Positions 4,268 to 30,997 of a stretch of DNA of 64,000 nt are shown here, piece by piece. The stretch's first letter is position 1; each line of letters starts with the position of its first letter. The position numbers and the translations under genes are program-made. The notes beneath the pieces were generated by a model. It was not told the DNA's origin and ran no database searches. It saw nothing but the letters and a program-made list of their open reading frames with translations. The stretch comes from Alkalispirochaeta sp. (GTDB lineage: Bacteria; Spirochaetota; Spirochaetia; DSM-27196; Alkalispirochaetaceae): positions 384,001 through 448,000 of the forward strand of contig CBDESZ010000018.1 in NCBI GenBank assembly GCA_965242725.1, in the 5' to 3' direction.

Positions 4268-5395
4268 ATGTTGATCCATCCACCCCGCATGATCGCGGAA
4301 ATAGGGACCGCCCATAGCGGGGACGTCGGTCGGGCAAAGGAACTCATATCCGCGGCGGCGGAGGCCGGTGCCGATACGGCGAAGTTCCAGCTGGTCATCG
4401 CCGACGAAATTCTCCATCCCCTCTCGGGCCCGGTAGATCTGCCGGGCGGCGCTTTTCCGCTGTATGAACGATTCAAGGAACTGGAACGGGATGTGGAGTT
4501 TTACCGCGAGCTGCAGGAGCTCTGTCACGAAGCGGGAATACAGTTCCTCTGCACGCCTTTCGGAGTGGAAAGCGCGCGCCACCTCTATTCCCTCGGCGTG
4601 GAGGAATACAAGATTGCCTCCCCTGAACTGAACCACCATCCCCTGATAAAGGAGATCGTTTCCTACCGGAAACCGATAATCCTGTCCACCGGTGTTTCCA
4701 GATTGCGGGACATCGGGGAAACCGTCGACTATATCGCGTCGCTCAACTCCGGTACGCCGCTCCAGCTCCTTCACTGTGTCACCTCGTATCCCGCCCGGGA
4801 GGAGGAATACAACCTCCGTGTCATTCCGGGGCTGGCATCGGTCTTCGGCATTCCCGTAGGCATCTCCGACCATTCAAGAGACGCGACGCTCGTTCCGGGC
4901 CTTGCGACGATTTTCGGTGCCGTTACGATAGAAAAGCATATAACCCTTGATCGTGACGCCAATGGGTTGGACGACCCCATTGCACTGGATCCCGAGGAGT
5001 TTGCGGAAATGGTGCGGGAAGTCACACGAATCGGGGAAGCTCTCGGGAACGCCACGGATCCTGTCGAACTGCAACGAATCAAAGAGGAACTGACCGCCGA
5101 CTACCGCGACCGCTTTGGTGAGGAACGGGTTGAAACCGTGCTCGGCGACGGTGTCAAGCGCCTTGCCGAAAGCGAAGTACGCCACTACGGCTACACAAAT
5201 CGAAGTATCCACGTTCTCCGCGACGTGACCGCCGGTACAACCCTCACCGAAAAGGATCTGGCCGTACTGAGAAGCGAAAAAAACCTGACTCCGGGTCTGC
5301 ATCCCCGCTACTGGGAGGTCATCCTGGGACGAAGGGTTTCAATGGACGTCCGTCCCGGCGAGGGACTGCGATGGGAGCACCTTTTCCGGGATTAG
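4268..5395 (+). CDS. N-acetylneuraminate synthase family protein (NeuB/SpsE-like) with C-terminal SAF domain
   Basis: AEIGTAH, AKFQ, KIAS, ILSTG, LHCVTSYP, SDH, IEKHITL motifs. Confidence 0.88.
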   Translation: MLIHPPRMIAEIGTAHSGDVGRAKELISAAAEAGADTAKFQLVIADEILHPLSGPVDLPGGAFPLYERFKELERDVEFYRELQELCHEAGIQFLCTPFGVESARHLYSLGVEEYKIASPELNHHPLIKEIVSYRKPIILSTGVSRLRDIGETVDYIASLNSGTPLQLLHCVTSYPAREEEYNLRVIPGLASVFGIPVGISDHSRDATLVPGLATIFGAVTIEKHITLDRDANGLDDPIALDPEEFAEMVREVTRIGEALGNATDPVELQRIKEELTADYRDRFGEERVETVLGDGVKRLAESEVRHYGYTNRSIHVLRDVTAGTTLTEKDLAVLRSEKNLTPGLHPRYWEVILGRRVSMDVRPGEGLRWEHLFRD

Positions 5396-5455: not shown

Positions 5456-8170
5456 CTACGCAACCAGTTTTCGAAGAACCGTATGCAGAATACCGCCGTT
5501 GCGGTAATACTCCACCTCGACGGGTGTATCGATTCTGCAAATCGTCTCGATCGTGGACGTCGATCCATCCTCTTTTTTGACATCCACCATAACCGTCTGT
5601 CCCGGTTTCAGTGAATCATCGACGTGAATCGTATATGACTCTTTCCCGGTAAGTCCCAGGGAATCGGCGGACGCACCGTCCTTGAACTGCAGCGGCAGGA
5701 CGCCCATACCTACCAGGTTGCTCCTATGGATACGCTCAAAACTCTCGGCGATGACCGCCTTGATTCCCAGGAGCTGAACACCCTTTGCGGCCCAGTCACG
5801 GGAGGAGCCCATGCCGTAATCCTTGCCCGCCAGGACAATGGTCGGAATATCCGCATCTTTATAGCGTTCCGCCGCCTCAAAAATGCTTACAACTTCTCCG
5901 GTGGGTACATGAGTCGTCACGGACCCCTCAGTGTCGGGAGCCATGGCGTTCCGAAAACGGATATTGGCGAAGGTTCCCCGGGTCATGATCTTGTCATTGC
6001 CGCGTCTGCTTCCGTAGGAGTTGAAGTCCTTTCGCTCCACACCCCGGCCGACAAGGTACGATCCCGCCGGACTGTCCGGAGCGATCGCCCCCGCTGGAGA
6101 GATGTGGTCGGTGGTGATGCTGTCACCGGCCTTGACGAGAACCCGCGCCGATGTAATCTCCTCGATGGGTTTCACCGTGAGATCCATATCCTTGAAGAAC
6201 GGAGGTTCCTGAATGTAATCGGACTCCTCTTTCCAGTCATAGAGCGCCGATTCCGTGACGGGAATGGCGTTCCAGTCGGGATTAGAATCTTCAAGTCCCT
6301 GGTAACTCTTTATGAATGCATCACGGTCCAGGGCCTGGCGAACGTATTCCTGCAGTTCATCTGCGGTCGGCCAGATTTCGTGGAGATACACGGGATTCCC
6401 CGACTGATCGTGACCGATCGGATCGCTTGAGAGATTGATATCCACCGTACCGGCAACGGCGTAGGCTACGACAAGCGGCGGCGACATGAGGAAATTGGCC
6501 TTCGTGTGGGGGTTGATACGTCCCTCAAAATTACGGTTCCCCGAAAGAACACCGGCGACGACGAGATCCTCCGCTTCGATCGCCTTTGCAATGTTTTCCG
6601 GTACGGGTCCACTGTTCCCTATGCAGGTGGTGCAGCCGTACCCGACAAGATAAAATCCGAGTTTTTCAAGATATGTCATCAACCCGGTACGCTGAAGGTA
6701 TTCGGTGACCACCATCGATCCCGGAGCAAAACTCGTCTTGATCCACGGCTTTCGGGTCAGTCCCTTTTCCACGGCTTTCTTTGCGAGAAGCCCCGCGCCG
6801 AGAAGGACACTCGGGTTGCTCGTATTTGTACAACTTGTAATGGCGGCTATGACCACGTCGCCGTGGGTGAGCTCCTTGCGGGATCCCTCATCCATGACGG
6901 CAGGTGAACTCTTCCGTATGTCCCCGTCGTCCAGGCCGTATCCGCCCTTTGCCACGGGAGCGCGAAGCATTGCCCGCCACGCGTCCTTGACGTTCTTCAC
7001 GGCGATCCGATCCTGGGGACGTTTCGGACCGGCAATGCTCGGTTCAATCTCATCAAGGTTCAGTTCAAGGACAGCCTCAAATTCCGGATCCGGCGTATCG
7101 TCTGTACGGAACATTTCCTGGGCCCTGGCATACTGTTCCACCGTTTTGATCTGCTCCTCCGGTCTGCCCGTTGCCCACATATAATCAAGAGTCTGCTGGT
7201 CTATCGGGAAATATCCCATCGTCGCGCCGTACTCGGGAGCCATGTTCGATATCGTCGCCCTGTCGGGAACGGTCATTTCACTCAACCCCGGTCCGAAGAA
7301 CTCGACAAACTTGCCGACAACGCCGTGTTTACGGAGCATTTCGGTTATACGAAGGACCAGGTCCGTCGCGGTGATACCCGGGCGAAGTTTTCCGGTAATC
7401 TTCACCCCCACTACCGCCGGCGCGAGGACGTATATCGGTTGCCCCAGCATCGCCGCTTCCGCCTCAATGCCGCCGACACCCCATCCGACGACACCAAGCC
7501 CGTTGATCATCGGAGTGTGGCTGTCGGTTCCAACAAGAGAATCAAAATAGGCTACCCTGCTGCCGTCAACGTCGCGCACCTGAACGCCTTTTCCGAGATA
7601 TTCAAGGTTCACCTGATGGCAGATGCCGCTCGCAGGGGGAACGACTGAAAAATTCTCAAATGCCCCCTGCCCCCATCGCAGAAATTCGTATCGCTCGCGG
7701 TTCCGCTGAAACTCAAGTTCCGCGTTCTTGCGAAGCGCCTCACTGCTGTTGAAGAAATCGACCTGAACCGAATGGTCGATAACGAGGTCTACAGGTAATT
7801 CAGGATTGATTTTTGCCGGATCGCCGCCGAGACGTGATACGGCGTTGCGCATCGCCGCCAGGTCGACGACGCTGGGAACGCCGGTGAAATCCTGCAGCAG
7901 TACACGTGCCGGCTTAAAGGGTAATTCAACTTTTGCCGGGCCGGCGGGATTGTAATTCCCAATGGCGTCGATATGTTCTTTGGTGACTTCATAACCGTCT
8001 TCATGACGTAAAATGGATTCCAACAGGACCCGTATTGAAAACGGCAGCTTCCGGACATTTGGAAATACCGTTTCAGCGAGATGGGCGACGCTGTAGTACT
8101 GTACATCTCCCAATGCGGTTTGCATTGTCTGCTTTGAATTGTAACTATTTCCCACTGAGGTTTGGCTCAT
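5456..8170 (-). CDS. acnA: Aconitate hydratase A
   Basis: [59 protein letters not shown]. Confidence 0.97.
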
Positions 8171-8190
8171 TCCTATCTCTCCTTAAGGTT

Positions 8191-8242
8191 ATTATACTGA
8201 CCCTACGGGGTAGTCGACTACACCATAGGCCCGTGGTATAGT
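8191..8242. promoter_or_regulatory. Overlapping divergent sigma70-type promoters around a 12-bp palindrome
   Basis: Plus strand: TCGACT(8214-19)-17 bp-TATAGT(8237-42) with TG extension. Minus strand: TATAAT at 8191-96. Palindrome GTAGTCGACTAC at 8210-8221. Confidence 0.5.
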
Positions 8243-8258
8243 GCGGGCGGGAGAGTTT

Positions 8259-11200
8259 ATGGTTACTGATAAATTCAACAATACCGAAGTCCTGCGGTCT
8301 CTCTATTCGACGATGGTTACGGCTCGTCACATGGACCTTATCGAGCAGAGCTATACGTCCCGGGGTGAAGCTTTTTTCCACGTCTCCGGTGCGGGGCACG
8401 AGGGCTCCATTGCCCTGTTTCCCCATTTGACCGAACATGACTGGCTTCACTGCCATTACCGCGACAAGGCGCTCATGCTTGCCCGGGGAATTTCTCCCTA
8501 CATGTTCTTTCTCAGTCTCTTCAACAAGGACGAATCCCACTCCCGGGGTCGACAGATGAACGCCCATATGAGCGACCCTGAGCGAAAGGTGTTGAGCATC
8601 GTCGGACCCGTCGGAAACAGTGCCCTCCAGGCGGTGGGCGTCGCGGAAATGGTGAAAGATGATGAAACCAACCCGCTCGTCCTGTGTGCCCTCGGAGAGG
8701 GAATGACCCAGGAGAGCGAGGTCCTTGAGGCGATCGGTCACGCCGTACGGGAAACGCTACCGGTCCTCTTCGTCGTTCAGGACAACAAGTACGCCATATC
8801 CACAAAGACGACAGGTAAGACATTCTATTCCCGCCCCTCCGGCGAGGCGGATGAGTTTTACGGCGTGCCCATTACCCGCATAGACGGAAGAAAGGTTCCC
8901 GACGCGGTTACACACTTCGGGACACTTGTCGATGCCATCCGCCGCGACAGGGGACCCCGGATCGTCATCTTTGAGGTGGAACGGCTTCACAATCACACAA
9001 ACGCAGACGATCAGCGGGTCTACCGTAATCCCGATGAAATCGCGGCGGCCGCAGAAACGGGGGACCCCGTGGCACTGCTTCGGGCCCAGCTCATGGCTGC
9101 CGGAGTGAATGAAGACGAGCTTACCACCGAGGAGGAGGAGATTCGGACTCGCCTCGAGGGAGAAGCGCGTCGCGCCCAGATGAGTGCCGAGCCGACGCCC
9201 GTCCACGGCGCCAAGGCGCCCCTTCCGGCCCGCCTTGAGGAGCGCAGCGGCGAGTACACCGGAGACGGCGAGGACTCACTGGTCATGCTCGAGGCGATCC
9301 GGGAAGTACTGGATGCCCGAATGGCACAGGACGACCGGGTCACCCTCTTTGGAGAGGATATCGAAGACCCCAAGGGCGACGTCTTTGGTATCACCCGGGG
9401 ACTGGGGAAAAAATACGGAAAGAGAATCAGAAACAGCCCCTTGAGCGAATCTCTTATTCTGGGAGTCTCCATAGGAAGGGCCCTCGCGGGGGGACGTCCG
9501 GTGGCGTTTCTTCAATTTGCCGACTTCCTGCCCATCGCGTACAACCAGATTTTTTCTGAACTGGGGAGTATGTACTGGCGAAGCGACGGAGGCTGGAAGG
9601 TACCGTTGATCGTCATGGTGACCGCCGGCGGCTATCGTCCCGGACTTGGACCGTTTCACGCATCCACCCTGGAGGCGCTCGTCGCCCATACGCCGGGCGT
9701 GGATGTTGTCATGCCGTCCACGGCGGGCGATGCGGCGGGACTGCTCAACGCCGCCTTTGAATCGGAGCGTCCGACAATCTTTTTCTATCCAAAGAATCAG
9801 CTGAACGATCGCGCCCGTATGACAAGTTCCGACGTGGCGAGACAGATCGTACCCCTCGGTGTGTCCCGACGTGTACGGGAGGGTTCGGACCTCACGATCG
9901 TGGCCTACGGCAATACCGTTCCCCTTGCCCAACGTGCTGCGGATGAGCTGGCAGACCAGGGTGTGTCCGTTGATCTTCTCGATCTGCGGAGTATCGTACC
10001 CTGGGACGAGGATGGGGTACTGAAGAGTGTAGACCGTACCGGTCGGCTCATTGTGACCCACGAGGACAACCATACCGCCGGATTCGGCGCCGAGGTTATC
10101 GCGACCATCGCCGAAAAAAGCCGTCGTCACATCGCCGCTCGCCGGGTCACCCGGGGAGACACCTATGTGCCCTGTAATTTCGGGAACCAGTTGGATGTTC
10201 TCCCGTCGTACAAGCGCATACTTGAGACGGCGGTGGAACTTCTGGGGGGAAGTATCGTCTGGAAACGGGACGACGCGGCGGAAAGCGGCGTCTTTGAGGT
10301 GGAAGCGATCGGTTCCAGCCCGTCCGACGAGACGGTAACGGTGGTGGAGTGGAAAGTTAAACCGGGCGATGTTGTAAAGGAGGGAGACCTCCTCGCCGAC
10401 GTCGAGGCCGACAAGGCCGCGACTGAATTGAAATCCCCCGTCTCGGGGACGGTGTCGGAACTCATTATAGAAGAGGGTGATAACGTCCCGGTGGGTACGC
10501 CGATCCTGCGAGTCAAAACGGCGGAAAACGAACCCGTTCATGTCAAACCGCTGACAAGGGAAAATCCCGGAACTCCCGTCATTACCGGAATCGGTCGGGA
10601 CGAAGGCGACGCTCCCGGGGGATCCACCCCGGCAGCTTCCTCCGTCCCGGTAGCCGCCACGGTGCGACGTGTCGACGGGCCGGTCTGTCTCATCGCAGGT
10701 ACCGCCGTCCGGAAGGGATCACGAATCGTCGAAAACGCGGAAATCGCAACGATGACTCCCGACTGGGAAGGCGACGACATCGAGAAACGGACGGGCATTG
10801 CCAGGCGCCACTGGGTCGTCCCGGGAGAGGACACGCTCACCCTCGCCGTCGATGCGAGTCGGGAGCTCCTGGATTCCAAAGAGATCGATATTTCGGACAT
10901 CGGCTTGATCATCTTTTCGACAGGTACCCCGACAAGCACCACTCCCTCTATGGCGGCGCTCCTGCAGCACGCGCTGAATACGGAGGGCGTAGACATATCA
11001 TGTCCCGCCTACGACATCAACGCCGCGTGTTCGGGATACATATACGGACTGCAGATCGCATGGGACTTTCTGAGCAACAGCCCGGACAGACTGGTTCTTC
11101 TGGTGACCAGTGAAGTCCTCAGTCCCCGTCTGGATATGCGCGACGGAGGTACGGCACCGATATTTGGCGACGCCGCAACGGCCACCCTCATCGGCGGTTC

Positions 11201-11654
11201 CCGTTCACCCGTCGCGGATGCCGCGTATGCGTCGGTGGATCGACCATTCATCGCCACAAAGGGAGAAAGCGGCGAGTCGCTGCGGGTTCCCCACGAAATT
11301 GATGTTCCCATTACAATGGATGGACCGGCGGTCTACCTGGAAGCGGTTCGGGCGATGATGCAGGCCCTCTCGTCCGGTGCCGATGCGGCAGGAATCAAGG
11401 CCGACGCCCTGGACCTCTACATTCCACATCAGGCCAATCAGCGAATCATCAACGCCATCCGTCAACGCCTCAAGGTTCCCCATGATCGGATGTACAGCAA
11501 CATCGCCGATAACGGAAACACCTCTTCAAGCACGATACCGATTTGTCTCAATGAACTGCTCCCTGACGGCTCCGGCGGCGGGCAGGTGTGGGGTATCACC
11601 GCATTCGGCGGGGGATTCACATACGGCGGTGCGTTACTGCGTACGCTGTCATAG
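8259..11654 (+). CDS. Fusion: 2-oxoacid dehydrogenase E1alpha + E1beta + lipoyl domain + 3-oxoacyl-ACP synthase III (FabH-like)
   Basis: One continuous ORF. TPP motif GEG...QDNKYAIS; E1beta GEDI, LQFADF, THED; lipoyl EADKA (Lys codon 10413); FabH triad DINAACSG (Cys 11028), PHQAN (His 11427), GNTSS (Asn 11517); C-terminal AFGGG. Confidence 0.92.
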   Translation: MVTDKFNNTEVLRSLYSTMVTARHMDLIEQSYTSRGEAFFHVSGAGHEGSIALFPHLTEHDWLHCHYRDKALMLARGISPYMFFLSLFNKDESHSRGRQMNAHMSDPERKVLSIVGPVGNSALQAVGVAEMVKDDETNPLVLCALGEGMTQESEVLEAIGHAVRETLPVLFVVQDNKYAISTKTTGKTFYSRPSGEADEFYGVPITRIDGRKVPDAVTHFGTLVDAIRRDRGPRIVIFEVERLHNHTNADDQRVYRNPDEIAAAAETGDPVALLRAQLMAAGVNEDELTTEEEEIRTRLEGEARRAQMSAEPTPVHGAKAPLPARLEERSGEYTGDGEDSLVMLEAIREVLDARMAQDDRVTLFGEDIEDPKGDVFGITRGLGKKYGKRIRNSPLSESLILGVSIGRALAGGRPVAFLQFADFLPIAYNQIFSELGSMYWRSDGGWKVPLIVMVTAGGYRPGLGPFHASTLEALVAHTPGVDVVMPSTAGDAAGLLNAAFESERPTIFFYPKNQLNDRARMTSSDVARQIVPLGVSRRVREGSDLTIVAYGNTVPLAQRAADELADQGVSVDLLDLRSIVPWDEDGVLKSVDRTGRLIVTHEDNHTAGFGAEVIATIAEKSRRHIAARRVTRGDTYVPCNFGNQLDVLPSYKRILETAVELLGGSIVWKRDDAAESGVFEVEAIGSSPSDETVTVVEWKVKPGDVVKEGDLLADVEADKAATELKSPVSGTVSELIIEEGDNVPVGTPILRVKTAENEPVHVKPLTRENPGTPVITGIGRDEGDAPGGSTPAASSVPVAATVRRVDGPVCLIAGTAVRKGSRIVENAEIATMTPDWEGDDIEKRTGIARRHWVVPGEDTLTLAVDASRELLDSKEIDISDIGLIIFSTGTPTSTTPSMAALLQHALNTEGVDISCPAYDINAACSGYIYGLQIAWDFLSNSPDRLVLLVTSEVLSPRLDMRDGGTAPIFGDAATATLIGGSRSPVADAAYASVDRPFIATKGESGESLRVPHEIDVPITMDGPAVYLEAVRAMMQALSSGADAAGIKADALDLYIPHQANQRIINAIRQRLKVPHDRMYSNIADNGNTSSSTIPICLNELLPDGSGGGQVWGITAFGGGFTYGGALLRTLS

Positions 11655-21592: not shown

Positions 21593-22984
21593 TTAGAAGT
21601 GGATCGCCCACCCTTCGGCGGCACGGGCGCTTTCCATCACCGCCTCCGAAAGCGTCGGATGGGCGTGAATCATCGTCGCAATGTCCTCCGGCAGGAGTTC
21701 CGCCTTCTTGGCAAGAAGGAGCTCATGGATCAACTCCGTGGCATTGTACCCGACGATGTGGGCACCGAGTATTTCCCGTGTCTCCTTGTCCAGAACGACC
21801 TTTACGAGGCCTTCGCTCTTTTCAACGGCGACGGACTTGCCGGCACCGCGATAGGGGAAGGTCGCCACATCAACGGGCCGCTTCCGCTCCTGTGCGGCCT
21901 TTTCGGTCAGACCGAAACTGCCGATCTCCGGTTCGCAGTACACGGCGGACGGAATCGACTGGGGATCAATTTTCGCCTCCGGCGAGTGGCCCGCCATGTA
22001 TTCAACGGCGATTTCTCCCTCTTTGCTTGCCACATGGGCGAGAAGCGGTGAGGCGATGACGTCGCCGATTGCGTAAACGCCCGGCACGGACGTCTGGTAA
22101 TAGTCACCCACGGTGATGAACCCCTTTTCCGTCTTCACACCGATTGTATCAAGACCGAGATTTTCGGAGTTGGGCGCCCGCCCGACGGCAACGAGGATCT
22201 TGTCTGCGTTGAGGGTCTCCTTGGAGCCGTCGGCGCTTTCCACATCCAGCTTTATTCCTTTGCCCTTGGTGTCCAGATTTGTCGCTTTTGTACCGGTCAT
22301 CGTTTTCACGCCGTACCGTTTGAACGCCTTTGCAACGATGTCCACCGTTTCGGCGTCTTCAAGGGGCAGCAGCTGATCAAGCATTTCCACCACCGTCACA
22401 TCTACGCCGAAGGCGTTCATGACATAGGCAAATTCCATACCGATCGCCCCGGCACCGAGAATGATCAGCGACTTCGGCAGCTCCGACATCCCGAGAATAT
22501 CTCGCGATGAAAGAACCTTTTTCCCGTCAAACTCAAAACCGGGAATCTCCCGGGAACGGGACCCGGTGGCAATGAGAATGTTTTTGGCGGAAATACTCTT
22601 CTTCCCGTCGATGGATACTTCATGGGCTGCGGTAAACTGCGCCGTACCCTCTATGTATTCGATCTTGTTTTTCTTGAGAAGGGACTGCACGCCTTTGGAC
22701 AGCTTGGACGCCGCGTCACGTGATTTTTTGTGAACTTTTCCGTAATCAAGGCCGCTCTTATCCACGGTGACGCCGATTTTTTGCAGCTCCTCCGTGTCGT
22801 GCATGATTTCAGCCTGATGGATAAGTGCCTTGGAGGGAATGCACCCCCAGTTGAGGCAGACGCCGCCCGGCGCCTCCTTCTCCACGACGGCCGCCTTTAA
22901 TCCGAGCTGGGAAGCACGGATCGCCGCGACATAGCCTCCCGGCCCCGCCCCTATGATAAGTACATCGTAATCGTAATCTGCCAT
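21593..22984 (-). CDS. lpdA: Dihydrolipoyl dehydrogenase (E3)
   Basis: GAGPGGY, GGVCLNWGCIPSK, GAGAIG, HAHPTLSE. Confidence 0.96.
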   Translation of the reverse strand: MADYDYDVLIIGAGPGGYVAAIRASQLGLKAAVVEKEAPGGVCLNWGCIPSKALIHQAEIMHDTEELQKIGVTVDKSGLDYGKVHKKSRDAASKLSKGVQSLLKKNKIEYIEGTAQFTAAHEVSIDGKKSISAKNILIATGSRSREIPGFEFDGKKVLSSRDILGMSELPKSLIILGAGAIGMEFAYVMNAFGVDVTVVEMLDQLLPLEDAETVDIVAKAFKRYGVKTMTGTKATNLDTKGKGIKLDVESADGSKETLNADKILVAVGRAPNSENLGLDTIGVKTEKGFITVGDYYQTSVPGVYAIGDVIASPLLAHVASKEGEIAVEYMAGHSPEAKIDPQSIPSAVYCEPEIGSFGLTEKAAQERKRPVDVATFPYRGAGKSVAVEKSEGLVKVVLDKETREILGAHIVGYNATELIHELLLAKKAELLPEDIATMIHAHPTLSEAVMESARAAEGWAIHF

Positions 22985-23012: not shown

Positions 23013-24356
23013 CTAGAAGATCATCCGGACAGGTTGTTCCATGATTCCCTGAAGATCTGCAAGGAATTTTCCACCTGCGGCGCCGTCGATAACACGATGG
23101 TCACAGGACAACGTCATTTTCATGATTGACGCGACACCGATGGAACCGTCGTCTTTGACGATCGGAGTCTTCCTGGTGGCACCGAGGGCGAGTATGGCCG
23201 AACCCGGGGGATTGATGATCGCCGTAAACTCCTCAACACCGAAAGAACCGAGATTGCTGATTGTGAACGTTGCACCGGTGTACTCACTGGGCTGGAGTTT
23301 TCCCTCCCGGGTTTTCCTGATCAGTTCCTGCAGCTCTTCATCGATTTCACGGACTCCCCTATTTCCGCAGTTCCGCACGACCGGCGTGATCAGCCCGTTG
23401 CCCAGATCCACGGCAAGACCGATATCGATGCTGCCGTACTGGACGATCTTGTCTCCCTGCCACGACGCATTGATATGGGGATGGCGCTTGATCGCCTCGG
23501 CGGCAAATTTGATGAAAAAGGCGTTGAGGGAAACTTTGTTGTCCAGCGTATCGTTGAGAAATTTTCTCGCGGCCACGATGTTTTCCATGGCAACCGACAT
23601 CTTGAGGTAGTAGTGGGGTGCGGAAAACTTGCTTTCGCTCAACCGCTTGGCGATGACCGCCCGCTTCCCTGCAACCGGGATTTCCTGGTCACCCGGCGCT
23701 GCCGCCCCCGCGGCGGGGGCGTTGCCGGTAACCGACGATGCCGGAATACCCCTGAACGATTCGATATCGCGTTTCACGATACGCCCGTCGGGACCGCTGC
23801 CGGTGACATAGGAGAGGTTGATATTCCGTTCCGCCGCGAGTTTCACCGCCAGGGGACTCGCCTTTATGCGTCCGCTTTCACCCCGCTGCGGTCCCGTCTG
23901 GGGAGCGGAACTCCTGGTTTCGTCCTTCCCGTCCGCCGGTTTTTCACTTTTCCCGGCTGTTGCCTTTTCCTGACTTTTTTCCTTTTCCCCGCCGGCCTCT
24001 TCTTTCTTTTTCCCGGCGTCGGGAGCGGGGGTACTCTCTTCTTTTTCTTCTTCTTTTTTGGCCCCCGATTCGCCGCCTTCCGCGGAGACGTCTTCCATGA
24101 TTGAGGAGATGTCCTCACCTTCCTCTCCGAGTATGGCGATCGTCTGACCTACGGTGGCGTTGTTGCCTTCGGTGACGACAATCTTGAGGAGCGTGCCCTC
24201 CTGGGTCGCCTCGTAATCCATGCTCGCCTTGTCGGTCTCCACCTCACAGAGGACGTCGCCGGCGGCGATGGTGTCGCCTTCCTTCTTATTCCAGCTCGTG
24301 ATGGTTCCCTCTTCCATGGTGGGAGAAAGAGCCGTCATCGGTATCTTTTCTGCCAT
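23013..24356 (-). CDS. pdhC: Pyruvate dehydrogenase E2 dihydrolipoamide acetyltransferase
   Basis: LSPTMEEG, ETDKA lipoyl site, PSBD (ASPLA...GSGPDGRI), DHRVIDG. Confidence 0.95.
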   Translation of the reverse strand: MAEKIPMTALSPTMEEGTITSWNKKEGDTIAAGDVLCEVETDKASMDYEATQEGTLLKIVVTEGNNATVGQTIAILGEEGEDISSIMEDVSAEGGESGAKKEEEKEESTPAPDAGKKKEEAGGEKEKSQEKATAGKSEKPADGKDETRSSAPQTGPQRGESGRIKASPLAVKLAAERNINLSYVTGSGPDGRIVKRDIESFRGIPASSVTGNAPAAGAAAPGDQEIPVAGKRAVIAKRLSESKFSAPHYYLKMSVAMENIVAARKFLNDTLDNKVSLNAFFIKFAAEAIKRHPHINASWQGDKIVQYGSIDIGLAVDLGNGLITPVVRNCGNRGVREIDEELQELIRKTREGKLQPSEYTGATFTISNLGSFGVEEFTAIINPPGSAILALGATRKTPIVKDDGSIGVASIMKMTLSCDHRVIDGAAGGKFLADLQGIMEQPVRMIF

Positions 24357-24361
24357 TGGTC

Positions 24362-25342
24362 CTACTCCTTGTATGTTACCCGTTTCACTGCGGCGATTAC
24401 CTTTTCCACCGACGGCTGGATTGCGAGTTCCAGCGTGTGGTTATAGGGCATCGGCACGTCTTCACTGTGGACAAACTCCACAGGAGCATCGAGATCGTCA
24501 AAGCAATTCCGGGAGACGAGCCAGCCCACGTGTGAACCGACACTCGCCATCGGCCATGACTCGTCGATGACGACGGCCCGATTGGTCTTTCGGACGCTTC
24601 TATAAATCGTCTCTTCATCGAGGGGACGAAGGCTCCGCAGGTCGACCACTTCCGCATTAATGCCCATGTCGGCGAGCTCCTCCGCCGCTTTCAGGACCAT
24701 GTAGACCGGTTTGCCGTGGGCGATAAGGGTAACATCGTCGCCTTCCCGCTTGATATCGGCCTTGCCGAAAGGTATGAGGTACTCTTCCTCGGGCACCTCT
24801 CCCGTCCACCCGTAGGCGAGTTCGCTTTCCAGCATGATCACCGGATTGTCATCCCGTATCGCCGTCTTCAGGAGTCCCTTGGCGTCGTACGGCGTTGCCG
24901 GGGCGATAACTTTGAGCCCGGGAACATGGACAAAGAAGCTCTGCAGCGCCTGGGAGTGCTGGGAAGAGAGATACTCCGCCGGTCCGTTTGCACCGCGAAA
25001 GACGATGGGCACCTTCAGCTGTCCCCCCGACATATGGCGCAGCTTTGCTGCGTTGTTGATAACCTGATCGAGCGCGAGGAGGGCGAAGTTGAAGGTCATC
25101 CACTCCACAATCGGCCGCAGTCCGACGGTTGCCGCACCGACGGCGAGTCCGGAAAACCCGAGTTCCGTGATCGGCGTGTCCAGAACACGCTTTTCTCCGT
25201 ATTTGTCGAGAAGACCCTTACTTACCTTGTAGGCGCCGTTGTACTGCCCGACCTCTTCACCGAGGAGAAAAACCTTTTCGTCCCGAGCCATCTCCTCGTC
25301 CATGGCCTGGCGAATCGCTTCCCGCATTTGAATTTCTGGCAT
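24362..25342 (-). CDS. pdhB: Pyruvate dehydrogenase E1 beta
   Basis: GEEVGQYNGAYKVS, DTPITE, EWMTFNF, QHSQ. Confidence 0.95.
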   Translation of the reverse strand: MPEIQMREAIRQAMDEEMARDEKVFLLGEEVGQYNGAYKVSKGLLDKYGEKRVLDTPITELGFSGLAVGAATVGLRPIVEWMTFNFALLALDQVINNAAKLRHMSGGQLKVPIVFRGANGPAEYLSSQHSQALQSFFVHVPGLKVIAPATPYDAKGLLKTAIRDDNPVIMLESELAYGWTGEVPEEEYLIPFGKADIKREGDDVTLIAHGKPVYMVLKAAEELADMGINAEVVDLRSLRPLDEETIYRSVRKTNRAVVIDESWPMASVGSHVGWLVSRNCFDDLDAPVEFVHSEDVPMPYNHTLELAIQPSVEKVIAAVKRVTYKE

Positions 25343-25364
25343 TCTTTACTCCTTTCGCTTCGCC

Positions 25365-26339
25365 TCAGGCGAGGATATCTTCATACATCGTATGGAGGGC
25401 CGGTTCTTCGCTCTTCTCCGCAAAATCAACGGAGTCTTGGACGATTTGCTTCATTTCATCGTCGAGCTTTTTGAAGTCCTCTTCCTTCAGGATCTTTGCC
25501 TCCATGAGCTGACTCTTCAGCTGGACGATGGGATCCTGCTTTTTGTACTGCTCCAGCTCATCTTTCGTCCGGTATTTGGCGGGATCGCTTATTGAATGGC
25601 CCTTGTACCGATACGTCTTCAGGTCAACCAGATAGGCCGTACCGCTCTTCCTGGACTCGTCGGCGACTTCCTTGAGCCCTTCATAGACATCCAGGAAATC
25701 CATTCCGTTGATCACCTTGCCCTTCAGACCGTATCCCTCGGCCTTGACTGAAAAGTCGTCGATACCGGAGACACGATGCACAGCGGTTCCCATTCCAAAG
25801 TGGTTGTTCTCCACGATATAGACAATCGGAATGTTCCAGATCTTTGCGAGATTGAGGCTTTCATGGAACGCGCCCTGATGTATGGCGCCGTCGCCGAAGA
25901 AGCAGAAGGTTACCCCCCCGTCTTCGTCGTACATGTGCTTGAATGCAACGCCCGTGGCAATGGGAATCTGCGCACCGACAATGCCGTTCCCGCCGAGGAA
26001 GTGGCGTTCGGCATCGAACATATGCATGGAACCGCCCTTACCCCGGACACACCCCGTTATCTTGCCGAAGAGCTCGGCCATGATGCTTTCCGGCGACATC
26101 CCGACGGCCAGCGCGTGTCCGTGGTCGCGATAGGAGGTAAGTATGTAGTCCTTGGCGAGATCCAGCGCCGCCACTGCACCGACCGCTACGGCCTCCTGTC
26201 CATTGTAGAGGTGGAGAAAGCCGCCGATTTTTCTCAGACCGTACATTTGTGCCGCTTTTTCCTCAAACCGGCGTATGAGCAGCATGTCCCGCAACGCCTT
26301 CATGAGAAAGTCCTTTTTGTATTTCTTGATATCCGACAT
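25365..26339 (-). CDS. pdhA: Pyruvate dehydrogenase E1 alpha
   Basis: GFLHLYNGQEA, YRDHGH, GKGGSMH, GDGA...ENN, RYKGHSISD. Confidence 0.95.
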   Translation of the reverse strand: MSDIKKYKKDFLMKALRDMLLIRRFEEKAAQMYGLRKIGGFLHLYNGQEAVAVGAVAALDLAKDYILTSYRDHGHALAVGMSPESIMAELFGKITGCVRGKGGSMHMFDAERHFLGGNGIVGAQIPIATGVAFKHMYDEDGGVTFCFFGDGAIHQGAFHESLNLAKIWNIPIVYIVENNHFGMGTAVHRVSGIDDFSVKAEGYGLKGKVINGMDFLDVYEGLKEVADESRKSGTAYLVDLKTYRYKGHSISDPAKYRTKDELEQYKKQDPIVQLKSQLMEAKILKEEDFKKLDDEMKQIVQDSVDFAEKSEEPALHTMYEDILA

Positions 26340-26354
26340 GTTCACTCCCTCTGA

Positions 26355-27010: not shown

Positions 27011-28054
27011 GTGTTTCAGAAACAGGTTGTCATGCGACGGGTGGTTTTTTCCCTCATTCCCTTGTTTCTGTTTGCGACATTTCTCTACGGTTGGCGGGTG
27101 GTCGTCACCACCGCCCTGGTCTTTGCCCTTGGTATTGGGACGGAATACCTCTTTGAGAGAAGTCGCAAAAAGAAAGTAAGTGAAGCGGTTCTGGTAACAA
27201 GCGCGCTCTATGCGCTCTCATTGCCGCCGGCAACGCCGTTATGGATCGCGGCGATAGGCATCATTTTTGCCGTCGCCGTTGGAAAGGGCGTGTACGGGGG
27301 ATTCGGCCGAAATATCTACAATCCGGCTATTACCGGGCGACTCTTCATATACATTACCTTCCCCACGGTCCTCACCACGGCGTGGATGGTTCCGGCAATG
27401 GTTGATGTCGCCGGCGCCATGGGATTGACCGGCGCGTTCGGTACCTCCGGTCAGGTTGCCGTCGACACCATTACCGCGGCAACACCGCTTGCGGTCATGC
27501 GCTCCGGGGAAATGCCCAACCTGTGGAACCTCTTTCTCGGATTCCGCGGCGGATCGATGGGTGAAAGCAGTACGATCCTGATCATCGCCGCCGCCACCTA
27601 CCTCATGTGGACCAAAACGGCAAACTGGAAGTTCATCACCTCCACATTTACAAGCGCTCTCGTCTTTACAATCGCGTTTTACTTTGCCGACCTGATTCCC
27701 GGCGTATCTCCTTCGTCATATTCAGGGGCGGGACATCTGGTACCCATCGCGGCATACATGATGAGCGGAAGCATTCTCTACGTCGCCGTTTTCATGTCCA
27801 CCGATCCCATTTCCGGACCGAATAATCCAAAGGCCCAATGGGTGTACGGATTCCTCATCGGCGGTGTTTCCATGACCGTCCGCACCTTCAGCGGTTTTCC
27901 CGAGGGAACGAGTTTCGGCATCATGATCGGGAACACTTTCAGTGCCCTTCTTGATGAGCTGCTGCCCAAGAAGAAAAAGAAAAAACAGAAAAAGCAGAAA
28001 GTGGCGGCCGCGCCGCCGGAGACGGCTGATTCCGGTCAGGAGGCGACCGTATGA
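27011..28054 (+). CDS. NqrB/RnfD-family membrane flavoprotein
   Basis: GGFGRNIYNPA, FMN site DTITAATPL, GSMGESS, FMSTDPIS. Confidence 0.9.
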   Translation: MFQKQVVMRRVVFSLIPLFLFATFLYGWRVVVTTALVFALGIGTEYLFERSRKKKVSEAVLVTSALYALSLPPATPLWIAAIGIIFAVAVGKGVYGGFGRNIYNPAITGRLFIYITFPTVLTTAWMVPAMVDVAGAMGLTGAFGTSGQVAVDTITAATPLAVMRSGEMPNLWNLFLGFRGGSMGESSTILIIAAATYLMWTKTANWKFITSTFTSALVFTIAFYFADLIPGVSPSSYSGAGHLVPIAAYMMSGSILYVAVFMSTDPISGPNNPKAQWVYGFLIGGVSMTVRTFSGFPEGTSFGIMIGNTFSALLDELLPKKKKKKQKKQKVAAAPPETADSGQEATV

Positions 28055-28656
28055 ACAAGCAGAGTCTCGTATATACCGTCATATTTACCTTCATCGTTTC
28101 CTTCGTGTTCGTACTTGTATTGTCTTTTGCAAACGAGGGTACCCGGGAACGGGTTGAACTGAACCAGCAACTCAATCGTCAGCGGGCGATCCTCAATGCC
28201 CTCGGCGTCGAGTATTCCGGACCGGATCAGGTACTGAGCCTCTTTGAGGATGTCGAGGAAGTCGAACGGGGAGGTATGACCTTTTACCGCACCGTCGTGG
28301 ACGGCGAGCAGGCGTACGCAAAAGAGTTCAACGGCAGCGGCCTGTGGGGCAATATCAACGGCATTATCGCCGTTGACGGAGAGGTGAACAGGACCCTCGG
28401 ACTGGAGATCATCAGTCATAATGAGACACCCGGCCTGGGAGGGCGTATCGATGAACCCTGGTTCAAGGAACAATTGCGGAATGAGCGCATCGTCGACGGC
28501 ACGATCCGCGTGAGCGGAGCCGGCGAAGGCGACGAGGATCACGACAACGGAGAAATTGACGCCATTACCGGTGCTTCGAGGACGAGTGATGCCATGCAAG
28601 TGATATTCAATAATCAGCTGTCGGACATTTCCGACGCATTGGGAGGTAACTCATGA
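28051..28656 (+). CDS. NqrC/RnfG-family FMN-binding subunit
   Basis: N-terminal TM helix, GSGLWG, HNETPGLGG, DAITGASRTS. Confidence 0.9.
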   Translation: MNKQSLVYTVIFTFIVSFVFVLVLSFANEGTRERVELNQQLNRQRAILNALGVEYSGPDQVLSLFEDVEEVERGGMTFYRTVVDGEQAYAKEFNGSGLWGNINGIIAVDGEVNRTLGLEIISHNETPGLGGRIDEPWFKEQLRNERIVDGTIRVSGAGEGDEDHDNGEIDAITGASRTSDAMQVIFNNQLSDISDALGGNS

Positions 28657-29258
28657 GCACCTCTGGTCAGATACTCAAAGACAATCTCTGGTCGAATAAT
28701 CCGATCTTTATGCAGGTTCTCGGAATATGTTCCGCCCTCGCGGTGACGAATCTGCTTGTAAACACGATGATCATGACCATCGGGGTGACCTTTGTGACGG
28801 CGATGTCGAGCTTCACCGTCTCGATGATCAAGTCGCTCATTCCCCGAAAGGTACGGATGATCGTACAGACCCTGGTCATAGCATTCTACGTAATCATCGT
28901 TGACATTCTCCTCAGGGCGTATCTTCCGGATATCAGTCGTGCCCTTGGACCGTATGTGGGGCTGATCATCACAAACTGCATCATCATGGGCCGGGCGGAG
29001 GCGTTTGCCCAGAGCAATCCGCCCCTCATTTCCATGTGGGACGGTGCGACCAGCGGCTTCGGCTATATGGCGGTACTGCTGACTATCGCATTTTTCCGGG
29101 AGCTCCTCGGCTTTGGAACGCTCTTCGGATACCAGGTATTACCCGACGCATTTGTACCGTGGACGATCATGGTTACCGCACCGAGTGCCTTTTTCTTCCT
29201 CGGCGGTATCATTTGGGCGGGCAAGACGATCATGAATCGTGAAGGAGCGGCAGCATGA
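28653..29258 (+). CDS. NqrD/RnfE-family subunit
   Basis: NNPIFMQVLGICSALAVT, VGLIITNCIIMGRAE, RELLG. Confidence 0.92.
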   Translation: MSTSGQILKDNLWSNNPIFMQVLGICSALAVTNLLVNTMIMTIGVTFVTAMSSFTVSMIKSLIPRKVRMIVQTLVIAFYVIIVDILLRAYLPDISRALGPYVGLIITNCIIMGRAEAFAQSNPPLISMWDGATSGFGYMAVLLTIAFFRELLGFGTLFGYQVLPDAFVPWTIMVTAPSAFFFLGGIIWAGKTIMNREGAAA

Positions 29259-29854
29259 ACGCGGCACCACTGTTAAATCCCTTTTCACTCTTTTTTGCGT
29301 CGATTTTTACGAGCAATATCCTTCTCGCAAACTTCCTCGGCATGTGCTCGTTCATATCCATATCCAAGGATATGACCTCTTCAAACGGACTGGGCATGGC
29401 GGTAACGGTGGTACTCACCATAACCACCGCACTCAACTGGGTTATTCTCAACTACGTGCTCGTCCCGCTGCAGGTGGAATATCTGCGCTTCATCGTATTC
29501 ATCATTTCCATCGCTGCGGTCGTTCAAATGCTTGAAATGATCATTGACCGTGTATCCCAGGCACTCTACATGAGTCTGGGAATCTTTCTGCCCCTCATCA
29601 CGGTTAACTGCGCAATTCTGGGTGTCTCCCTTTTCATGGAGATCCGGAATTACACGTTCCTCCAAAGCGTGATATACGGATTCGGTTCCGGCCTTGGATG
29701 GTGGCTCGCCATTATGGCTCTTTCGGCGATTCGGAAGAAAACCGAGAAGGCGCCGGTTCCCGCAGGACTGAAAGGGCCGGGAATCACCGTCATTACCATT
29801 GGGTTCATGGCAATGGCCTTTATCGGGTTTTCCGGCATGCTCTCGGTTCAATAA
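29255..29854 (+). CDS. NqrE/RnfA-family subunit
   Basis: FLGMCSF, LGIFLPLITVNCAILG, MAMAFIGFSG. Confidence 0.92.
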   Translation: MNAAPLLNPFSLFFASIFTSNILLANFLGMCSFISISKDMTSSNGLGMAVTVVLTITTALNWVILNYVLVPLQVEYLRFIVFIISIAAVVQMLEMIIDRVSQALYMSLGIFLPLITVNCAILGVSLFMEIRNYTFLQSVIYGFGSGLGWWLAIMALSAIRKKTEKAPVPAGLKGPGITVITIGFMAMAFIGFSGMLSVQ

Positions 29855-29866
29855 GGAGTTCTTCAG

Positions 29867-30997
29867 ATGGAATTGGACTTGGTATACTTTATCGCCCCCG
29901 CGGCAGTGGGGGGCATCTCGGCGGGCCTGGCTGCGCTGATTTCGATAACCGACAAGATCGTCAACAACTATGGCGACATAAAAATCGATATTAACAACGG
30001 AAAAAAGGAGCTCGTCGTCAAGGGCGGACAGCCGATGCTCTTCGGACTTGCCGGGGAAGGCATTTTCATACCTTCCGCATGCGGCGGTCGCGGAAGTTGC
30101 GGTACCTGCAAGGTGAAGGTCAAGAGTGACATCGGCCCGGTCATGCCGACCGAGGTTCCATACCTTACCAAGGAAGAGATAGCCGACGACGTCCGACTCT
30201 CCTGTCAGGTCAAACTCAAAGAAGATGTGGATATCGACATTCCTGAGGAGCTTTTCAACGTCCAGGAGTATCAGGCCACCATCGAGAAGATTGAACAGGT
30301 TACCCACGATATTCTGGAGGTGTACTGCAAACTCCCCGAGGGCAAGGAAGTGACATTCACCTCCGGTCAGTACGGACAGTTTGAGGTTCCTCCCTACGAA
30401 AAGGTGAAAGAGAGATCGATGCGTGCCTATTCGATGTCTTCACCGCCGTCGGACAAGAACCACCTTGAGTTCCTGATCCGTCTCGTCCCGGGCGGAATCG
30501 TCACCACCTACGTTCACAACCATCTCCAGGAAGGCGAAAAAATCCGTATTGTCGCTCCCTTCGGCGACTTCTACGTCCGCGAGACCGACGCCCAGATGAT
30601 CTGTGTCGCCGGCGGTTCTGGAATGGCTCCGTTCAAGAGTATTTTTCAGGACATGATCGACAAGGGTACTTTGAATGATCGGGAAATCTGGTACTTCTTT
30701 GGCGCGCGGTCAAAGAGGGATGTTTTTTACCTCGATTGGCTGTACAAGCTGGATGAAGAAAATGAGAATTTTCACTTCATCCCCGCCCTCAGTGAACCCC
30801 AACCGGAGGACAACTGGGACGGTCCGACGGGATTGATCACTGAAATCCTCGATGAATACCTCAAAAATACAATTAATCCGGAGAAAGAGAAGGAAGGATA
30901 TCTCTGCGGCAGCCCCGGGATGCTTGATGCGTGTATGAAGGTCATGTCTGAAAATGAAATGCAGACCGACAAGATATATTTCGACAAGTTTGCGTAA
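29867..30997 (+). CDS. NqrF-like membrane-anchored 2Fe-2S/FAD NADH oxidoreductase
   Basis: N-terminal TM helix, SACGGRGSCGTC...RLSCQ, RAYSMSS, GGSGMAP, FGARS, YLCGSPGM. Confidence 0.9.
   Translation: MELDLVYFIAPAAVGGISAGLAALISITDKIVNNYGDIKIDINNGKKELVVKGGQPMLFGLAGEGIFIPSACGGRGSCGTCKVKVKSDIGPVMPTEVPYLTKEEIADDVRLSCQVKLKEDVDIDIPEELFNVQEYQATIEKIEQVTHDILEVYCKLPEGKEVTFTSGQYGQFEVPPYEKVKERSMRAYSMSSPPSDKNHLEFLIRLVPGGIVTTYVHNHLQEGEKIRIVAPFGDFYVRETDAQMICVAGGSGMAPFKSIFQDMIDKGTLNDREIWYFFGARSKRDVFYLDWLYKLDEENENFHFIPALSEPQPEDNWDGPTGLITEILDEYLKNTINPEKEKEGYLCGSPGMLDACMKVMSENEMQTDKIYFDKFA

Follow-up and report, generated by a model that had tools for sequence, protein, structure and literature searches.

Gene content and domain architecture of the locus

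The window analyzed here is a 64,000-nt stretch of an Alkalispirochaeta sp. contig (CBDESZ010000018.1, positions 384,001 to 448,000), and positions given below are relative to it unless another locus is named. An open reading frame (ORF) on its forward strand (8259 to 11654) encodes a single protein of 1131 amino acids, in which the E1α and E1β modules of a 2-oxoacid dehydrogenase, a lipoyl domain, and a FabH-type β-ketoacyl-acyl carrier protein (ACP) synthase III (KAS III) follow one another (hereinafter referred to as the fusion). The frame was free of stop codons from 8241 or 8259 to 11654. A Shine-Dalgarno-like GGAGAG (8250 to 8255, forward strand), recognized by sequence reading, lies before the ATG at 8259, with a spacing of 5 nt between its GGAG and the start codon, and close homologs use the same start methionine. 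A promoter scan returned a single site (8214 to 8242), against 1.0 expected by chance.

The modules were delimited on the forward strand by Pfam matches above cut-off, the conservation of the family, and a structural model. The E1α module, of branched-chain type (8259 to 9233; E1_dh, residues 17–314), contains the thiamine diphosphate (ThDP) motif from G146 to N176, His246, and the pocket residues F40, Y67, M100, and H103. The E1β module (9267 to 10244; Transket_pyr, 343–516; Transketolase_C, 537–645) contains Glu397 and His467, and the lipoyl domain (10284 to 10523; Biotin_lipoyl, 693–751) bears the attachment residue Lys719 (codon 10413 to 10415). It is followed by a conserved segment (residues 765–776, 10551 to 10586; a strand at 772–776 in the model), which belongs to the E1-lipoyl module and is also present in a KAS III-less relative (locus L035, see below); this segment may serve as a tether. 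A flexible linker rich in Pro, Gly, and Ala (residues 782–805, 10602 to 10673), with a predicted local distance difference test score (pLDDT) below 50 and no Pfam match, leads to the KAS III module (10674 to 11651; ACP_syn_III, 918–982; ACP_syn_III_C, 1042–1128), which carries Cys924 (11028), His1057 (11427), Asn1087 (11517), and Arg1062 (the equivalent of R249 of Escherichia coli FabH). 

No match to the E2 acyltransferase core (2-oxoacid_dh, PF00198) or to the peripheral-subunit-binding domain (PSBD; E3_binding, PF02817) was found in the fusion by Pfam, and no DHR motif occurs anywhere in the 1131-aa protein. An AlphaFold2 model built on a 117-row alignment (pLDDT 93.4, predicted template modeling score 0.74) confined disorder to residues 1–4 and 782–805 and contained no helices, and hence no PSBD, in the stretch that leads from the lipoyl domain to KAS III. 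The preliminary description of this DNA, made from the letters alone, had named the same modules in one uninterrupted ORF, without E2 core or PSBD and with the lipoyl Lys and a Cys-His-Asn triad; frame, Pfam matches, and model bore this out, and Cys924, His1057, and Asn1087 align with C112, H244, and N274 of E. coli FabH. In sequence matches to the PDB, each chain covered one module of the fusion at most (E1 or FabH), and among the Foldseek matches listed none spanned E1 and KAS III. When the lipoyl domain was modeled in a complex with the KAS III dimer, the score was 0.03 and the mark 0.32, values that speak neither for nor against contact. Contigs of the sequencing runs X1 and X3 matched 8000 to 10661 in pieces (at least 99%) and ended before the point where the lipoyl domain is joined to KAS III. 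No RNA data were among the sequencing runs listed.

Conservation and distribution of the fusion

The fusion is real and represents a conserved family. A homolog search returned 1,722 matches below an E value of 0.001, and all 120 of those listed have the same six Pfam domains, with no E2 core or PSBD among them. Among 69 loci fetched, 35 contained a full-length single ORF, 28 were ordinary E1/E1/E2 operons, and 6 were cut or had another layout; the 35 full-length loci stem from Spirochaetota, Pirellulaceae, Verrucomicrobiota, and Kiritimatiellia. An assembly chimera was rejected on these grounds. The fusion was also found in related genomes, absence from which the preliminary description had named as a refutation: in 41 genomes including this one, it was whole in 31, a partial match in 4 (three at contig ends), in frameshifted pieces in 1, and without a match of the fusion clade in 5. 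Two copies, each in frameshifted pieces owing to sequencing error or decay, were observed in one complete genome (G030; L092 and L093). In an even sample of phyla, 7 of 300 other genomes had fusion matches, and no plasmid record covered 80% of the fusion. Named carriers include an unclassified Oceanispirochaeta, Ca. Accumulibacter necessarius, Ruficoccus sp. ZRK36, a metagenome-assembled genome of Francisellaceae, and Anthocerotibacter panamensis.

Residue conservation was counted in 132 close and 36 distant fusions, counts that include kin and are not independent samples. G146 and N176 of the ThDP motif, H246, E397, H467, and the lipoyl K719 were invariant in the 132 close members, as were C924, H1057, N1060, and N1087 of the KAS III part. 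Some homologs are labeled "E1 component" in the databases and others "beta-ketoacyl-ACP synthase 3", a split that conceals the family. The preliminary description knew of no biochemical characterization of this architecture; in agreement with that, no description of the fusion was found in a search confined to open-access literature, and a paper on Akkermansia describes the canonical route and does not name the fusion. The fusion is apparently undescribed and connects known modules in a new way, with one reaction that is likely to be new.

KAS III in the position of the E2 core

The preliminary description had placed KAS III where E2 would be expected, and the relatives of the E1-lipoyl part agree with this placement. 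A profile search with that part covered 1.84 billion representatives; among the 150 listed, 49 carried KAS III, 14 carried an E2 core, and none carried both. A tree of the E1 part was calculated from 85 rows chosen from the matches of this search and the fetched loci (quick IQ-TREE run, supported by the Shimodaira–Hasegawa-like approximate likelihood ratio test only). All 40 KAS fusions fell into one clade of 47 rows (support 98), which was sister to three single-chain E1-lipoyl-E2-core proteins (joint support 99). Eight more E2-core fusions and two E1 of Streptomyces polyketide synthase (PKS) loading modules formed the next shell, and stand-alone Bkd and pyruvate dehydrogenase (PDH) branched outside these shells. 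Because stand-alone Bkd and PDH were taken as the outgroup, the ancestor would be an E1-lipoyl-E2-core chain whose core was later replaced. Descent of the fusion from such a chain, by KAS III replacing the E2 core, is part of the explanation that we somewhat favor. No E3_binding match was found in the E2-core fusions scanned, and therefore the lack of a PSBD in the KAS fusion would be inherited.

Other tails are nested among these rows: an E2 core (P0271), a thioesterase (P0273), and KAS III followed by a ketoreductase (KR) and an ACP (P0284, 1942 aa). By its domain order, P0284 appears to place the fusion-type KAS III in a condense-and-reduce module. P0325 has an E2-ACP-KS-MT-C-A tail on an E1-lipoyl unit of the same type, and a Pirellulales locus (L035, 3913 to 12171) encodes a fusion-clade E1-lipoyl unit, then an E2 core with ACP, and then a type I PKS (KS-DH); this last layout resembles BkdB, used as a PKS loader. 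In addition, P0270 carries an unassigned tail of 250 aa on an E1-lipoyl unit of the fusion clade.

KAS III residues at the CoA and ACP contacts

The triad was retained in nearly all fusions, with Cys and Asn present in 132/132 close and 36/36 distant members and His in 132/132 and 35/36. Compared with E. coli FabH, W32 is replaced by Asp840, R151 by Gly963, T28 by Trp, N210 by Pro, and F87 by Thr. W32 and R151 are presumed here to stack the adenine of coenzyme A (CoA). The pair of an aromatic residue at position 32 and Arg or Lys at 151 was found in none of the 132 close and none of the 36 distant fusions, and in all 23 stand-alone KAS III of spirochetes. R36 was kept in 118/132 fusions, and the F87 position was Thr in 130/132. 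R249, which we take to form, with its neighbors, the basic ACP-docking patch of FabH, was kept in 131/132 fusions; position 257 was Arg in 125/132, and K214 was missing in the stand-alone controls as well. All 23 stand-alone proteins (L123 to L142; L073, 8028–9053; L074, 6848–7906) have His at R36, Arg or Lys at N210, and no K214. Of the curated models, TIGR00747 (fabH) scored 224 bits, below its cut-off of 292, and NCBIfam PRK09352 scored 252, just above 249.

A second lineage with lipoyl, PSBD, and KAS III

KAS III was also found joined to a lipoyl domain and a PSBD. In two genomes (G039 and G031), an E1α/β gene is followed by a lipoyl-PSBD-KAS III gene (L086, 8498–12124; L087, 8235–11759), and G039 encodes both this two-gene system and the single-chain fusion. 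In a separate listing of 120 homologs, about 74 carry E3_binding (hand count), and named carriers of the lipoyl-PSBD-KAS III type include Salinispira pacifica, Spirochaeta lutea, Ereboglobus, Rariglobus, and Pelagicoccus. From its domain order, this protein looks like an E2 in which only the core has been exchanged. The E1 of the two-gene system, whose adjacency was seen in two loci only, grouped in the E1 tree with PDH and acetoin types (96), away from the fusion E1, which points to a separate origin. The fused, lipoyl-PSBD, and stand-alone groups were also separate in a KAS III tree (98, 94, and 100); since this tree has no broad outgroup, the case for separate origins rests on the E1 tree. 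The residue equivalent to F304 of FabH was Val in 115/115 lipoyl-PSBD-KAS III proteins.

The E1 part and its probable substrate

The E1 part of the fusion is supported by sequence comparison as branched-chain-like. The best 16 PDB sequences for the α part were all branched-chain E1α (Thermus, 113 bits; human, 84–95 bits); pyruvate E1 scored 57–65 bits, and the Pseudomonas branched-chain enzyme only 60. The best PDB match of the β part was the Thermus branched-chain E1β. In the alignment to Thermus E1, F66, Y95, M128, H131, and H129 of the β chain were kept, and Y86 of the β chain was replaced by Phe; these six residues, in a numbering and role that we assume, would form the branched-chain pocket, of which five are thus identical. 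The preliminary description had taken GEG/NKYAIS as the mark of a branched-chain E1. The type was supported by the PDB matches and by a GRQM..H loop, which is a better marker; GEG itself was not diagnostic, its position being Asp in 88/132 and Glu in 44/132 of the family.

No other E1α of this genome has the GRQM..H loop. Its other E1 proteins are those of PDH, a second pyruvate/acetoin-type enzyme, an 824-aa E1 beside a short-chain dehydrogenase/reductase (SDR), and SucA. The 824-aa protein, an E1α/β with a long insert, lies in an operon with a DeoR regulator, an E2, and the SDR (L071, 3260–8950, on contig C30 of this genome), downstream of a sugar-type ABC transporter. Among 20 further E1α loci taken from the top matches in relatives, 18 had a pyruvate/acetoin-type loop, 1 had another loop, and 1 was a partial gene from a non-carrier. 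These loops suggest that carriers have no separate Bkd. With a Brevibacillus Bkd E1α as the query, nothing above 37% over the full length was found in the 41 relatives; a query of this kind cannot show that Bkd is absent, because an annotated pair of Bkd E1α is only 33% alike. In Oceanispirochaeta, one of the named carrier genera, iso-C13:0 and iso-C15:0 are major fatty acids of strains M1 and M2 (PMC11129491).

Gene neighborhood and helper genes

The fusion gene is solitary, flanked by a divergent acnA and a convergent msrB. A role in a biosynthetic cluster was rejected for this genome in view of this housekeeping context. No ACP (PP-binding) domain was matched in the fusion or its neighbors, and single-case neighbors at other loci were a lipoate ligase domain (L041), an acyl-ACP thioesterase (L090), and SDR proteins (L086 and L089). 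The preliminary description had given lpdA (E3; 21593 to 22984, reverse strand; TIGR01350, 550 bits, above cut-off) as an example of a reoxidant in trans. This gene closes a complete pdhA-pdhB-pdhC-lpdA operon (pdhA-pdhB-pdhC, 23013 to 26345, reverse strand) with its own E2 (PdhC), and its closeness is therefore uninformative on the fusion. As a shared enzyme acting in trans, LpdA would be the likely reoxidant of the lipoyl arm.

For lipoylation, the genome contains lipA and two LplA/LipB genes, and Lpd and LplA/LipB were found above cut-off in 5/5 distant carriers. lipA lies upstream of the fusion on the same contig (377566 to 378429 in contig numbering), at a distance of about 14 kb and about 5.6 kb before the window. 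Elsewhere in the window, an Nqr/Rnf-type run (27011 to 30997; RnfD, an FMN-binding protein, two membrane subunits, and an NqrF-like protein) is divergent from the pdh operon and a PNPOx-like gene, and a solitary NeuB-family gene (NeuB and SAF; 4268 to 5395) lies between serS and acnA, a position kept in relatives.

The preliminary description had also raised the question of whether carriers lack a stand-alone fabH or E2. For fabH this was rejected as a rule, since three further KAS III-type genes are present in this genome and a second KAS III occurs in 4/5 distant carriers. E2 cores of other complexes occur in 5/5. A fourth, divergent KAS III-like gene was observed on contig C16 of this genome (132417 to 132683; 48 bits to ACP_syn_III_C, 382-aa frame). 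In one genome that is 99% complete (G331), the fusion holds the sole ACP_syn_III_C match.

Proposed reaction and alternative explanations

We propose that the fusion primes fatty-acid synthesis by converting a branched-chain 2-oxoacid to a 3-oxoacyl-ACP without a CoA intermediate, a reading to which the sequence comparisons lend a probability of roughly 0.55. The E1 part, with ThDP, would decarboxylate 2-oxoisocaproate, 2-oxo-3-methylvalerate, or 2-oxoisovalerate and reductively acylate its own lipoyl-Lys719; this chemistry is established and its residues are present, the substrates being predicted. The S-acyl-dihydrolipoyl arm would then acylate Cys924 of KAS III through thioester exchange, with no CoA involved. 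KAS III, in which the triad is seen, would condense it with malonyl-ACP (supplied by FabD and AcpP) to iso- or anteiso-3-oxoacyl-ACP, which would enter type II fatty-acid synthesis, and the shared LpdA would reoxidize dihydrolipoamide in trans with NAD+. Stand-alone FabH proteins would prime straight chains from acetyl-CoA.

That the lipoyl arm delivers its acyl group to KAS III, standing in the place of E2, is partly supported by three independent comparative lines, on which the preference for direct transfer is based: the exchange in the E2 slot, the loss of W32 and R151, and the parallel lipoyl-PSBD-KAS III lineage. In a wider form, to which we give even odds, KAS III primed from an acyl-dihydrolipoyl arm would have arisen at least twice by replacing an E2 core, would be the sole KAS III in some genomes, and would extend across Spirochaetota, bacteria of the Planctomycetota-Verrucomicrobiota-Chlamydiota (PVC) group, and scattered Proteobacteria and Cyanobacteria. 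The E1-lipoyl unit would then be a portable acyl donor for several acceptors (E2 core, E2-ACP, KAS III, and thioesterase).

Several observations weigh against this proposal. The Trp at the T28 position, found in 125/132 close homologs (10/36 distant), could replace W32 as the adenine stacker, and position 210, which is basic in 23/23 stand-alone proteins, is Pro in 117/132 fusions, which may weaken ACP binding. A pair of the W32/R151 type is kept in 57/115 lipoyl-PSBD-KAS III proteins, which shows that a KAS III linked to a lipoyl domain need not lose it. In the E1 part, identity to characterized branched-chain E1α is only about 30% (known Bkd E1α differ equally among themselves, at 33%), and the pocket residue Y86 of the β chain is lost to Phe. 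This genome has four lipoyl-bearing E2 proteins (PdhC, SucB, and those on contigs C1 and C30), and one of its three further KAS III-type genes lies beside fabD-fabG-fabF. No recurring fab, ACP, or lpd neighbors were found when 41 loci were clustered and 77 neighbors scanned. The spread is patchy (the 7/300 genomes of the phylum sample; 5/40 relatives without the fusion) and includes a cyanobacterium, a group that, to our knowledge, is not known for branched membrane acids. Further, the carrier protein WP_114629602.1 is tied to the Oceanispirochaeta strains with fatty-acid profiles at genus level only.

Alternatively, the same lipoyl-to-KAS III chemistry might serve another 2-oxoacid (pyruvate, 2-oxobutyrate, or a longer or aromatic one) or yield a specialized lipid or polyketide. 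The low identity to characterized E1, the PKS lines loaded by relatives of the fusion E1, and the dispersal of carriers across dissimilar phyla all agree with this, as does Thr at the F87 position, which may open the acyl channel, an effect reportedly seen in Mycobacterium tuberculosis FabH. The gene is, however, solitary amid housekeeping genes here and in relatives, with no biosynthetic cluster, and five of the six assumed pocket residues match Thermus E1, and we regard this explanation as improbable. To the same degree we doubt that acyl-CoA is still used, with the fusion merely co-localizing the activities and either an E2 core acting in trans (PdhC or the C1 or C30 E2) or KAS III working as a lipoyl:CoA transacylase. 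The E2 cores and extra KAS III genes of this genome and the distant carriers would allow a route in trans, R36 is mostly kept, the newly gained Trp is a single helical turn away from position 32, and half of the lipoyl-PSBD-KAS III group retains the CoA pair. Against it, the pair is lost in all 168 fused rows and in none of the 23 controls, E2 core and KAS III are strictly exclusive in one slot, and a tethered KAS III without CoA contacts would profit little from free acyl-CoA.

Slightly less probable still is that KAS III is a lipoyl:ACP transacylase only, making isovaleryl-ACP for elongation by FabF as a stand-in for a BkdB-type E2 core with ACP. Sister loaders do terminate in an E2 core and ACP (P0340, P0325, L035, L094, and L095), and KAS enzymes with acylating activity are reported (PMC4578411). 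Such a role would leave unexplained why the decarboxylation residues His1057, Asn1087, and N247 are invariant in 132/132, and it fits poorly with the KR and ACP directly after KAS III in P0284 and with the fusion as the sole KAS III match in G331. Very improbable, finally, is a vestigial or non-oxidative lipoyl domain or E1 beside a KAS III that acts alone: the missing PSBD for E3 recruitment would suit it, but Lys719 and the catalytic residues of E1 are invariant, the sister E1-lipoyl-E2-core proteins likewise have no E3_binding match, and Lpd and lipoate ligase or transferase genes are present here and in all five distant carriers.

Comparison with known systems

The textbook route to iso- and anteiso-fatty acids passes through acyl-CoA. 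A CoA-free, lipoyl-primed KAS III would, if true, be a new chemistry for FabH, would account for branched lipids in bacteria without a recognizable bkd operon, and would keep starters that derive from amino acids separate from the CoA pool of catabolism. A single gene as a source of branched primers would also help to engineer branched fatty acids, for which bkd together with a FabH swap is needed today (PMC6461809), and cultured carriers of the fusion exist.

The branched-chain 2-oxoacid dehydrogenase complex (BkdA1/A2/B and LpdA) feeds FabH in Staphylococcus aureus and Bacillus subtilis (PMC11167679, PMC6461809; further PMC5011732). The fusion shares with this route the branched-chain-type E1α and E1β, with their ThDP, His, and Glu residues, the lipoyl arm and its Lys, the need for E3, the FabH-type triad, and the predicted net product. 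It differs in being one chain without its own E2 (PSBD and acyltransferase core), in a KAS III that has lost W32 and R151, and, as predicted, in skipping acyl-CoA. Compared with FabH itself (E. coli, 1hn9; Aquifex, 2ebd), the KAS III part shares the fold (template modeling score 0.91–0.94, normalized by target), the triad, N247, R249, F157, M207, and F304, whereas it falls below the TIGR00747 cut-off, has W32, R151, T28, and N210 replaced, and is covalently tied to a lipoyl domain.

The E1 of loading modules on Streptomyces plasmids (L094 and L095; E1α/β and lipoyl-E2 core-ACP-KS in clusters of PKS and non-ribosomal peptide synthetases, NRPS) lies in the shell beside the fusion clade, and from the domain order these modules would likewise bypass free CoA in moving the acyl group from lipoyl to a biosynthetic carrier. 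There, the E2 core would pass the group to an ACP and then to a type I ketosynthase, whereas KAS III replaces the E2 core in the fusion; E2 core, ACP, and downstream PKS/NRPS are missing at the fusion locus and are found in the relatives L035, P0325, L094, and L095. Streptogramin A-type loaders and quinocarcin QncN/QncL/QncM/QncK would also be of this type; among the papers listed in a search for the streptogramin loader, none was relevant.

Judged by description, the closest functional precedent for a CoA-free conversion of a 2-oxoacid to a ketoacyl thioester is BkdABC of Photorhabdus (plu1883 to plu1885). This is a branched-chain ketoacid dehydrogenase with a ketosynthase, and its BkdB has an ACP domain that NgrA primes (PMC4578411; PMC4901931; bioRxiv 10.1101/2022.10.20.513026). 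On that basis, both systems would combine a dedicated E1 with a ketosynthase and turn a branched 2-oxoacid into a 3-oxoacyl thioester for iso-fatty-acid synthesis; BkdABC is divided among three proteins and relays the group through an ACP within BkdB, whereas the fusion has neither an ACP domain nor an E2 core and would hand the acyl group from its lipoyl arm directly to KAS III.

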